Shown one piece after another: positions 22,646 through 24,902 of a stretch of 64,000 nucleotides of DNA (position 1 is the stretch's first letter; every line of letters starts with the position of its first letter). The DNA comes from K189A clade bacterium (GTDB lineage Bacteria > Pseudomonadota > Gammaproteobacteria > Pseudomonadales > Azotimanducaceae): positions 3,367 through 67,366 of the forward strand of contig JABBAY010000223.1 of assembly GCA_018607725.1 (NCBI GenBank). The letters run 5' to 3'. Made by a program: the position numbers and the translations under genes. Under the pieces are notes generated by a model. That model was not told the DNA's origin, searched no databases, and worked only from the letters and a program-made list of their open reading frames with translations.

Positions 22646-22649
<4 letters not shown>

Positions 22650-23746
22650 AGCTTCATTGGCATAACAACATAAATTGAATCTTCCGCACTTGGGTCCTCC
22701 AACAACGCACTGCTATTGGCATCATGCAGGGTAATCTTTACCGTATCGCTATCAATAACGCCTAAAACATCTAGCACATAGCCGACGTTGAAACCGACCT
22801 CAAGCTCAGCCCCCTGGTAGTCCACGGACACCGTTTCCTCTGCCTCCTCTTGTTCCGGGTTATTTGCCGATAGCTGCAAAACACCTGAAGACAGGTTAAC
22901 GCGAATTCCACGGAATTTTTCATTTGACAATATCGCGGTGCGATTCAGTGCCTGCCGCAGCTCTAATTTATCCGCCACGATAAGCTTATCGCCATTTTTG
23001 GGAATTACGCGATCATAATCTGGAAACCGCCCGTCTACCAACTTGGTTGTCAGCACAAAGTCTGCGGACTCTGCCATCAAATAATTAGCTCCTATGGCAA
23101 TCCCTATATCACCTTCGACTTCGTTTAATAAGCGCTGCAATTCAAGAACGCCCTTTCTGGGCAAGATCACTTGCCGACTATCTGCGCTTGCACCTTCGAG
23201 CTTAAGCGTGCTCATTGCCAACCGGTGACCATCCGTCGCGACAGTCTTGACGTAATCTCCACCCATCTCAATCAACATACCATTGAGGAAATACCGAACA
23301 TCTTGCTGCGCCATGGCGAAAGCTGTTCTGTCCAACAACCGCTTCAAGGACTTGCTGTCGATTCTAGTGGACATTTCCGCGAGTGATTTCTCTACTGTCG
23401 GAAAGTCTTCCGCGGGCAGCGTCGACAGTGTCGAGCGAAAACGACCGGCTTTAACCGTCAACCGTTGCCCCACTAATATCAATTCGATCTCAGCCTTGTC
23501 TGGCAACTCGCGACAAATATCCATTAACTTTCGCGCCGGCACAGTAATCTCGCCGCTTTCACCTTCGATTAACGGTACTCGACCCACCATCTCCACTTCG
23601 AGATCGGTGCCCGTTAAGGACAATACGTTGCCCTCAACCTGCAACAATACATTCGACAACACTGGCAAAGTCTGACGTCGTTCGACGACGCCGGCAACTT
23701 GCTGCAGCGGTTTCAACAGCGCTTCTCTACTAACCCGTAACTTCAT
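22646..23746 (-). CDS. dnaN: DNA polymerase III beta sliding clamp (canonical copy, recF-proximal)
   Basis: 366 aa. It keeps the E. coli/Pseudomonas-type signatures TVATDGHRLA, KLVDGRFPDY, ILSNEKFRGIR, NNPEQEEAEE, GFNVGYVLD and the C-terminal [12 protein letters not shown] overlap with recF. Confidence 0.95.
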
Positions 23747-23798
23747 GGAATTTCCTATAGTGAGTGCTCACATTACACACAGGGCCTATATTACAGGC

Positions 23799-24902
23799 TT
23801 ATAAAATCATGGGGCTTACCACGAAACGTGATAAGCTCTCGTCAGGACCTGCCAGCAACATGGCACTATTGCCATCTATAAACGTCATTTGAACCCTATC
23901 GCCATCGATCGCCGATAGCGCATCAATGATGTAGTCCACATTAAAGCCAATCTTTAAACCCGCTCCATCGTAATCAACCGGAACATTTTCTTCAGCCTCT
24001 TCCTGCAATGGGTTGTTCGCGTAAATACCCAAGTTACCCGGCGTAAGCTCCAGACGGATATTTCGATAGGTCTCGTTCGCCAGGATTGCAGTTCTCGTTA
24101 ATGCGTCCTTAATTTCACGCCTGTTACCCACCACGATGACATCGCCCCCCGCCGGGATGGCTCTTTCATAATCCGGGTATGTGGCATCAATTAATTTTGT
24201 CACCAAACAGAATTGACGGGACACGACCCGCAGGTGATTTCTTGAAAATTGAACCAGTAGTTCCTGTGTGTCATCTTTAACCATTCGTAGCATTTCGACA
24301 ACGCCTTTTCTGGGGACGATGAACTGCTGCGTGTTACTCACCGCATAAGCACCTGGCAGATGGTTAACAGCAAGCCTTTGGCCGTTAGTTGCCACCGTCG
24401 TCAACTGGTTTGCGCCTGTCACAAACAACATTCCATTAAAAAAATACCGAACATCCTGATGTCCCATGGCGAAACTGGTCTTATCCAGAAGGCGCTTAAA
24501 ATCCGCTGGCGCGAGCCTCAGTTCGACCAGGACTGGATCCATCTCGACGGTGGGAAAATCTATAATCTCCAAGGTTGCCAGGTGCGACCGAAAGCGACCG
24601 CTGACAATGCTCATTCGCTCGCCCTCAAGGGAACAGACCAACGGTGCTGTACCGGGCAAGCTGCGACAAATTTCACTAAATTTACGCGCTGGTATTGTCA
24701 CAGCACCATCGACAGTACTTCTAATACTGTCCAGGCTTGCGCTTAACTCAACTTCTAGATCCGTGCCGACAAGCGTCAGCCGACCCTTCTCTACAGAGAT
24801 CATCAGGTTCGCAAGCACCGGCAACGTCTGCCGGCGCTCCACCACACCAGACACAAATTGCAAAGGCTCGAGCAGCGCATCACGGTCTATCTCAAACTTC
24901 AT
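23799..24902 (-). CDS. divergent second beta sliding-clamp paralogue (dnaA-proximal)
   Basis: 367 aa, full three-domain length. It shares SGVVERRQTLPVL, GTDLEVE, HQDVRYF.NGML, VPRKGV, NNPLQEEAEE and GFNVDYIID with DnaN. It differs at TVATNGQRLA, KLIDATYPDYERAIP, ILANETYRNIR and the C-terminal FVVSPMIL. AAGGA RBS, 18 nt after the dnaA stop. Confidence 0.88.
   Translation of the reverse strand: MKFEIDRDALLEPLQFVSGVVERRQTLPVLANLMISVEKGRLTLVGTDLEVELSASLDSIRSTVDGAVTIPARKFSEICRSLPGTAPLVCSLEGERMSIVSGRFRSHLATLEIIDFPTVEMDPVLVELRLAPADFKRLLDKTSFAMGHQDVRYFFNGMLFVTGANQLTTVATNGQRLAVNHLPGAYAVSNTQQFIVPRKGVVEMLRMVKDDTQELLVQFSRNHLRVVSRQFCLVTKLIDATYPDYERAIPAGGDVIVVGNRREIKDALTRTAILANETYRNIRLELTPGNLGIYANNPLQEEAEENVPVDYDGAGLKIGFNVDYIIDALSAIDGDRVQMTFIDGNSAMLLAGPDESLSRFVVSPMIL

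Follow-up and report, generated by a model that had tools for sequence, protein, structure and literature searches.

Organization of the dnaN locus

The DNA analysed here is a 64,000-nucleotide stretch (hereafter, the window) of contig JABBAY010000223.1, positions 3,367 to 67,366 of the forward strand, from the assembly GCA_018607725.1 of a K189A clade bacterium (Gammaproteobacteria, Azotimanducaceae). Its dnaA-gyrB region contains two full-length dnaN genes for the beta sliding clamp, which lie head to tail on the minus strand between dnaA and recF. The dnaA-proximal copy, which we refer to as S-type (23799..24902, 367 aa), encodes a divergent, extra beta-clamp paralogue, and the recF-proximal copy, M-type (22646..23746, 366 aa), encodes the canonical clamp. 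The S-type gene begins 18 nt after the stop codon of dnaA (24921..26294, minus strand), and its ATG is preceded within this gap by AAGGA. A spacer of 52 nt (23747..23798), which includes an operator-like palindrome at 23760..23771, separates it from the M-type gene, whose stop codon overlaps the start of recF (21555..22649, minus strand) in the sequence ATGA. The gyrB gene (19145..21562, minus strand) completes the dnaA-dnaN-dnaN-recF-gyrB block. A preliminary description of this DNA had listed the two open reading frames, the 18-nt gap with its AAGGA, the spacer length and the ATGA overlap, all of which we find in the sequence as described.

The two proteins of the window are identical at 179 of 367 positions (49%, one gap, E = 2e-124 in BLASTP), which agrees with an earlier estimate by eye of 40–50%. 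Likewise, the observation that the genes themselves are not recognisably similar is borne out by a codon-based alignment, in which they are 53% identical overall and 31% identical at third positions; the longest word common to both genes is 14 nt, and there is a single 64-nt patch of 81% identity. All three clamp domains are present in both proteins (in S-type, PF00712 with an E-value of 1.7e-32, PF02767 with 6e-30 and PF02768 with 2e-30), and both exceed the TIGR00663 cut-off of 137.65 bits, S-type with 293.6 bits and M-type with 338 bits. The recF-proximal copy carries the motifs TVATDGHRLA and YVVMPMKL, which in the dnaA-proximal copy read TVATNGQRLA and FVVSPMIL. The designation of the former as canonical and of the latter as divergent is thus upheld by signatures and profile scores alike.

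S-type belongs to a family of its own. The 120 best database matches to S-type include 117 proteins that end in SPM followed by two hydrophobic residues, and all 120 best matches to M-type end in MPM[KR]L; the S family as gathered here comprises about 178 distinct proteins. We also searched a profile of the S family against 1.84 billion representatives of clusters formed at 50% identity and judged the best 150, every one of which carries a proteobacterial-type pocket pattern. Members were compared by the residues at positions 155/173/175/247/280/346/362/365 (numbered here and throughout as in the Escherichia coli clamp), with at least six of the eight states required for the canonical LDHVGSMR-type signature. 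Of the best 150 representatives, 133 have this signature and ten are S-type clusters. Two intermediate members, with LNQAQPSV and FNQASASK at the signature positions, also occupy a tandem position.

The docking pocket of S-type

The docking pocket of the bacterial clamp comprises subsite I (R152, L155, T172, G174, H175, R176, L177, P242, R246, V247, V360 and M362) and subsite II (H175, N320, Y323, V344, M362, P363, M364 and R365), bridged by two residues, H175 and M362; across bacteria, only G174 and V344 vary (PMC11139829). The clamp-loader subunit delta docks in the same pocket (PMC11139829). Polymerases, Hda and MutL dock there too. Residue His175 is in contact with delta, with MutL and with the motif of Pol III, and the pocket is also the site occupied by griselimycin and mycoplanecin.

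To compare the two families, we counted an alignment column as discriminating if it was at least 90% conserved in M-type and the M-type residue occurred in no more than 15% of the S-type sequences. There are 22 such columns; among the 18 pocket residues, five fall into this set, against an expectation of about one (hypergeometric P = 0.0025). Four of the five are the replacements L155F (134 of 135 S-type sequences), H175Q (135/135), V247A (133/135) and M362S (134/135), and the fifth is position 365, where R/K has given way to M, V or I. All five positions are invariant in the 138 M-type sequences. Further changes in S-type cluster near the pocket, namely D173N and G280N (135/135 each), F241Y and S346A/P. 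The S-type protein of the window has F155, N173, Q175, A247, N280, A346, S362 and I365 and terminates in SPMIL; its M-type neighbour has an intact L155/D173/H175/V247/G280/S346/M362 pocket and terminates in MPMKL. With the canonical states of the conserved pocket replaced, S-type is, on the evidence of these alignments, a DnaN homologue with a non-canonical pocket.

Variation at the C-terminus of the clamp is found outside the S-type family too. In several other proteobacterial clamps (P0300, P0315, P0345, P0346 and P0347) position 365 is hydrophobic and S346 is replaced by Gly, with H175 and M362 kept. We considered these mixed-signature clamps as candidates for further tandem paralogues and found P0347 to be a single dnaN gene, in a rearranged locus with dnaA-dnaN and with gyrB and recF on the opposite strand; the contig of P0300 is too short to judge.

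Ring fold, DNA contacts and dimer interface

An AlphaFold2 model of S-type, built from the family alignment, has a predicted local distance difference test score of 91.1 and a predicted template modelling (TM) score of 0.88. In Foldseek comparisons it matches the clamps of Pseudomonas aeruginosa (6AMS) and E. coli with a TM score of 0.96 and a root-mean-square deviation of about 1.5 Å. Residues that contact DNA are conserved throughout the S family (R24 in 93% of sequences, Q149 in 99%, and R197, K198 and R269 in 100%), and R73 is kept as well. At the dimer interface, conservation is 100% for I78, 92% for I272, 93% for L273, 100% for K74, 99% for E300 and 100% for E304, and L108 is unchanged. 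Model and alignment together show a predicted ring fold, a set of DNA-contact residues and a hydrophobic dimer core that have been kept in S-type.

The remaining family-specific changes outside the pocket are E298 to L/Q, S109A, K277 to a hydrophobic residue, K12E and R240T. Of these positions, E298 is one of the better-conserved interface charges. Position 106 is Ser in both paralogues; compared with other clamps, both have exchanged a conserved interface Phe, such that R-S-R-F106 has become R-F104-R-S106.

Distribution of the tandem and losses of S-type

We read the gene context of relatives to about 10 kb around each match. The order dnaA, extra dnaN, canonical dnaN, recF, gyrB was found in 30 independent loci or assemblies, including the window, and the S-type reading frame is intact in all 30. 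This number of independent occurrences excludes chance or mis-assembly as the source of the tandem. The earlier statement that it is neither a recent duplicate nor an assembly repeat is upheld. Scanning one genome per species with S-type returned 17 gammaproteobacterial loci, all of them in tandem order except L015, whose contig stops after the extra dnaN copy, and the same order is seen on contigs of 4.13, 4.17, 4.32 and 5.85 Mb. Genomes with S-type include CP121333.1, CP170502.1 and the 4.17 and 4.32 Mb contigs of ERZ22157276 and ERZ26859023. The carriers are labelled Pseudomonadales, Gammaproteobacteria or Candidatus Azotimanducaceae and are marine; all S-type proteins come from uncultured bacteria.

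As an unbiased test, the canonical copy was used to probe metagenome contigs, which returned 80 loci. Seven of them are at least 65% identical to M-type and end in MPMKL, and six of these seven are tandem, L034 being single-copy. The loci with identities of 62% or less, which end in MPMR[LM], are all single-copy, with dnaA and dnaN both visible in 67 of them. The extra clamp had originally been regarded as standing out from an otherwise conserved gene order; it proves to be a lineage trait of a clade, lost in a few of its members. Outside the clade, at least 67 loci are single-copy.

Two lineages within the clade carry M-type only: L029/L030, whose M-type is 78% identical to that of the window, and L034, at 73%. 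In 185 of 200 bootstraps both fall inside the M clade of the tandem carriers, and S-type was evidently lost at least twice inside the clade. The in-clade genomes without S-type include the 4.73 Mb contig ctg19887c of ERZ26052130 and the L034 lineage. In L034, the 397-nt gap between dnaA and dnaN (L034:4104-4501) contains colinear, decayed remnants of S-type: residues 1-52, a segment from about 236 to 270 (KLIESAYPYY, with the S-type states I237 and Y241) and the terminal ...VISPMV*, all interrupted by internal stops and frame changes and followed by the palindrome and then by the start of the canonical dnaN. An M-type query gave no match in this gap. The L034 remnant is direct evidence of secondary loss. 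In every loss within the clade the missing copy is S-type, and the canonical copy is always retained.

Origin of the paralogues and their rates of evolution

The final neighbour-joining tree included 57 single-copy gammaproteobacterial clamps as close outgroups. Of its 100 bootstrap replicates, 100 recovered S-type as monophyletic, 95 recovered M-type, and 97 united S and M in an exclusive clade. When only distant outgroups were used (Actinomycetota, Bacteroidota and Elusimicrobiota), S-type was basal and seemingly paraphyletic, with very short internal branches, a placement that we treat as long-branch attraction; gamma-corrected distances with the same outgroups gave a clean S split whose attachment point was undecided until the close outgroups were added. 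Twelve positions set the M-type of the clade apart from the consensus of the 57 outgroup clamps. S-type has the derived state of M-type at four of them (K80R, S104F, F106S and Y154F) and the ancestral state at four others (L16, S81, Y278 and L283), and M-type must therefore also have changed after the split. Its fixed peculiarities relative to the outgroup clamps are L16Q, S81E, Y278F, L283V and R365K, and the changes that followed the duplication possibly lie at the dimer interface.

Over 20 genomes, pairwise distances of S-type and M-type are correlated with r = 0.94, and the two genes have equal GC content and equal GC content at third codon positions (GC3). Searches of phage and plasmid collections yielded only matches below 45% identity, the best of which were enterobacterial chromosomal dnaN genes. 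The sister-group relationship of S and M, their common derived residues, the correlated distances and the equal GC and GC3 show, as read from these sequences, a single ancient in-place tandem duplication of dnaN in the ancestor of the clade, followed by co-divergence. The preliminary description had left the choice between an old paralogue and a horizontal acquisition; the first half of that alternative stands, and the second finds no support in view of the S+M grouping in 97 of 100 bootstraps, the common derived residues, the equal GC and GC3 and the lack of relatives in the phage and plasmid collections.

S-type is the faster-evolving copy in all 190 genome pairs, by a gamma-corrected factor of 2.2. 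Its ratio of non-synonymous to synonymous substitutions (dN/dS) is 0.07-0.10, that of M-type 0.011-0.022, and identities within the S family fall to 41%. Mean column entropy over the whole protein is 1.40 in S-type vs 0.83 in M-type; for the pocket of S-type it is 0.39. The losses, the L034 remnant and the purifying selection elsewhere together indicate that S-type is kept by selection in most lineages and yet is dispensable.

The closest pair in the set, the window and L001, shows a synonymous divergence (dS) of 0.24 for S-type and 0.44 for M-type, with five times more non-synonymous differences in S-type. The low dS of S-type in this pair may be due to recombination between lineages or to constraint on synonymous sites, for instance by an embedded promoter of the downstream dnaN.

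The spacer and its palindrome

The imperfect palindrome in the spacer of the window, noted already in the preliminary description, is real and is conserved across the clade. On the coding strand it reads GTGAGCACTCAC (23760..23771), with arms of 5 bp and symmetry at 10 of 12 positions; the S-type stop is 27 nt before it and the M-type ATG 13 nt beyond it. The clade consensus is approximately TAGTRAG-YR-CTYACTAAC. Of the 29 tandem spacers, which add up to 2.5 kb, 15 contain a strict core, GTRA-N4-TYAC, whose background frequency in these loci is 0.063 per kb; the other 14 spacers have variants of the core with one or two mismatches. In most loci the M-type ATG follows the palindrome at a distance of 12-29 nt; in some the palindrome directly adjoins the S-type stop, which gives TGA-TAG-TAA in frame and puts it as far as 344 nt from the M-type start. 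It also precedes the sole dnaN of L029 (by 17 nt, with 8/8 core positions) and of L034 (by 15 nt, with 7/8). Of 67 dnaA-dnaN spacers in the outgroup, 66 lack the motif, and inheritance from an ancestral spacer of this kind was rejected on that ground. From its conservation, we would describe the palindrome as a clade-specific, operator-like element upstream of the canonical dnaN.

Among relatives, the spacer between the S-type and M-type genes varies from 33 to 358 nt. The two long ones, in L014 (256 nt, L014:5745-6001) and L017 (358 nt, L017:5643-6001), have the palindrome at their S-type end; the others measure 33-113 nt. In five loci (L011, L012, L013, L014 and L017) the palindrome begins directly behind the S-type stop, which results in three consecutive in-frame stops, TGA/TAA-TAG-TAA/TGA; the motif itself contains stops in several frames of either strand.

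An RNA hairpin was considered as an explanation of the palindrome. Its core positions 3 and 10 vary independently, and in 12 of 29 cases they do not pair, with both A-C and G-T classes represented. This lack of covariation makes a hairpin unlikely and a dimeric DNA-binding protein the better guess. The core GTAAGCGCTTAC / GTGAGCGCTCAC presumably corresponds to the half-site architecture of LacI/GalR operators, and we take GTGAGCGCTCAC to be the core of the symmetric lac operator. Operators of this type are palindromes of 12-16 bp in which two half-sites abut around a central CG, and a dimer of the LacI family binds them. The central CG is found in only 10 of 29 unique palindrome sites, and no LacI-family gene was found among the genes of the 64-kb window; we mention the likeness as a lead only. 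The possibility that the palindrome marks a regulon was also dismissed, as it occurs elsewhere in the window at background frequency and at sites inside coding regions.

The same spacer had been credited with -10-like hexamers and, on that basis, with the independent transcription of the canonical copy. Neither idea found support: the hexamers are unsupported by a sigma-70 consensus scan, and in the spacer region no promoter or terminator was found above chance, the counts being at or below shuffled expectation.

Possible roles of the second clamp

Among the roles raised in the preliminary description were a dedicated clamp, a heterodimer and a part in Hda/RIDA; the remodelled pocket favours altered partner specificity. 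We regard it as reasonably probable that S-type is a working second beta clamp that has become specialised and differs in its choice of partners. Such a protein would still encircle DNA but would read the standard clamp-binding motif differently from the housekeeping clamp, and would accordingly recruit fewer or other partners; candidates are a single polymerase, Hda or some repair factor whose motif has co-evolved. The S-type pocket would have been rebuilt and the new states then fixed in the S family, with the canonical clamp remaining the general hub of replication and repair. The palindrome, as a putative protein-binding site, could allow the two clamps to be expressed in different ratios. 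A clamp with few partners would fit the combination of faster overall evolution with a frozen pocket in S-type, and a hub role for M-type is suggested by its being the copy retained wherever one was lost. More generally, we infer that a hub with many partners evolves slowly, as M-type does, and that a clamp with few partners drifts everywhere except at its interface, which is the pattern of S-type.

A bolder proposal, and one that we offer only tentatively, is that the clade operates two clamps whose docking codes are orthogonal. The pocket of S-type would then read the private, co-evolved motif of one dedicated partner, for example Hda (which switches off DnaA), a translesion or alternative polymerase, or a loader subunit of its own; the canonical clamp would keep the universal motif, and the conserved operator would set the ratio of the two clamps.

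Several observations weigh against a specialised clamp of altered specificity. Many pocket residues are kept in S-type (R152, T172, G174, R176, L177, P242, N320, P363 and M364, and also Y153), and changes in the pocket alone are no proof of changed specificity. Within about 10 kb around the matches, no partner, co-evolved motif, second holA or hda, or extra polymerase was identified, and the sigma-70 scan of the spacer found no promoter. The phylogeny is a distance-based neighbour-joining tree with a simple gamma correction, in which the position of the S clade is unstable when the outgroups are distant. The main difficulty is that delta uses the same pocket. Its rebuilding might also hamper loading of the clamp, a point that would favour a role off DNA; the possibilities are that delta accepts both pockets, that it has co-evolved, and that S-type is not loaded.

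If S-type were no longer a processivity ring, it might titrate or otherwise regulate an initiation factor, DnaA or Hda. The gene starts 18 nt from dnaA and is probably co-expressed with it, the delta contact H175 is replaced, and two basic residues have been lost (K12E and R240T). The position is little informative, however, since a tandem copy of dnaN would in any case come to lie behind dnaA, and a protein that never surrounds DNA would hardly be expected to conserve R24, Q149, R73, R197, K198 and R269 together with the dimer core. We consider such a regulator very improbable. The same dimer core (I78, L108, I272 and L273, with most of the acidic patch) is kept in both families, which also share the unusual interface state S106 with F104, and the genes are adjacent, co-oriented and probably co-transcribed. 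These features would suit a heterodimeric clamp, an asymmetric ring of one S and one M protomer whose two different pockets hold two partners at once, and both families have fixed near-interface changes of their own (S109A, E298L/Q and K277 to a hydrophobic residue in S; S81E, Y278F and L283V in M). Such changes could equally prevent mixed dimers, and the canonical clamp works alone where S-type has been lost; we think a heterodimer distinctly unlikely.

It also seems unlikely, to a lesser degree, that S-type serves as an insensitive back-up clamp, whose rebuilt pocket would withstand a toxin, a phage-encoded clamp inhibitor or a peptide akin to griselimycin or mycoplanecin and so allow replication to continue with the housekeeping clamp blocked. 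The family-specific changes do fall in exactly the pocket that griselimycin and mycoplanecin bind, and the extra dnaN genes griR and mypR are established self-resistance genes. A back-up replicative clamp would nevertheless depend on the altered pocket for its binding of Pol III alpha, epsilon and delta; that pocket is frozen over about 178 diverse members instead of diversifying as an arms race would predict, and the gene has been lost at least twice. Neither the 64 kb of the window nor the flanks of relatives, where all neighbours are housekeeping genes, contain a non-ribosomal peptide synthetase (NRPS), a polyketide synthase (PKS), another biosynthetic cluster or a transposase, and no alternative polymerase cassette was found in the window; vertical inheritance at a core locus is likewise unlike that of griR and mypR, which sit beside transposases. 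The earlier suggestion of natural-product self-resistance accordingly appears unlikely. As for a decaying or neutral duplicate, or an artefact of assembly, the faster evolution of S-type and its loss in some lineages could be so explained, but the possibility is refuted: the reading frame is intact in 30 loci with dN/dS of about 0.1 or less and a pocket that is invariant despite deep divergence, the truly decayed copy in L034 looks very different, and the tandem is found in independent assemblies that include contigs of long-read scale.

Comparison with other additional clamps

S-type resembles the canonical clamps of E. coli and P. aeruginosa (2POL, 1MMI and 6AMS) in its three-domain protomer, with 44-46% identity, and in its place in a dnaA-dnaN-recF-gyrB block. 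It differs from them in the replacement of five of 18 pocket residues, in a terminus of SPM and two hydrophobic residues where the canonical clamps have MPM[R/K]L, in evolving about 2.2 times faster, and in being an extra copy that some lineages dispense with.

A search of the literature on second or additional dnaN genes found only Bacillus dnaN-2 and griR/mypR and no description of the tandem S-type; the remaining matches concerned 'two DnaN' in the sense of fluorescent foci, or LacI operators. That S-type apparently has not been described before would fit with all of its members being from uncultured bacteria. According to the account in PMC3290774, DnaN-2 of Bacillus (dnaN2 of B. anthracis; Yang and Miller, 2008) is about 40% similar to the housekeeping copy and has an unclear role, and in B. 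anthracis deletion of the extra dnaN had no phenotype, the housekeeping copy carrying the repair functions. Like S-type, it is a second chromosomal dnaN, but S-type is from another phylum, arose independently within a gammaproteobacterial clade and stands in tandem at the origin locus. Bacillus dnaN-2, in contrast, sits elsewhere on the chromosome. Orthology of the two is rejected by the grouping of S-type with its co-resident gammaproteobacterial M-type (97 of 100 bootstraps).

The griR and mypR genes belong to the NRPS clusters of the griselimycin and mycoplanecin producers (Actinomycetota) and lie beside transposase genes. GriR and MypR are, like S-type, additional DnaN proteins whose differences concern the same ligand-binding pocket. 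S-type differs from them in its core origin locus, in its vertical inheritance across a clade and in having no biosynthetic genes nearby: the combination of a biosynthetic cluster and transposases that characterizes griR and mypR is missing from the 64 kb of the window and from the flanks of its relatives.

The division of partners among paralogous clamps through different docking surfaces is known from the PCNA1/2/3 heterotrimer of Sulfolobus and from eukaryotic 9-1-1 beside PCNA. These are trimeric rings of the PCNA fold, and their subunit-specific partners have been shown experimentally. The model proposed here for S-type is the same kind of partner division, demonstrated there and inferred here. 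An orthogonal docking code, if true, would be the first natural case in bacteria of partners being partitioned between paralogous beta clamps, comparable to PCNA and 9-1-1.

The docking pocket ranks, in the usual view, among the most conserved protein-protein interfaces of bacteria and is an antibiotic target as well (griselimycin, mycoplanecin and peptide mimics). The S-type family challenges the working assumption that this pocket is nearly invariant and may be viewed as a natural experiment on the limits of its re-coding, with the ring kept and both bridging residues replaced under purifying selection across a clade of abundant marine bacteria. Pocket variants that are likely to affect pocket-directed drugs are already present in nature. 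S-type could further show how bacteria split replication, repair and initiation control between two clamps, and S-type with its partner might furnish an orthogonal clamp-and-motif pair for engineering. With both clamps in one genome and relatives that lack S-type, co-loss of genes can be used to seek that partner.

Other features of the window

An Rfam scan of the window gave no match, and the window has no rRNA gene. At 51451-52785, a cytochrome P450 gene lies between genes of a tripartite ATP-independent periplasmic (TRAP) transporter and ubiA; its best NCBIfam match is solanimycin SolI, at 437 bits against a cut-off of 850, and there are no further biosynthetic genes near it. Upstream of dnaA, between dnaA and the rpmH/rnpA side, five DnaA boxes with at most one mismatch from TTATCCACA are concentrated within 176 bp (26510..26685), a region that is probably oriC and the dnaA promoter.

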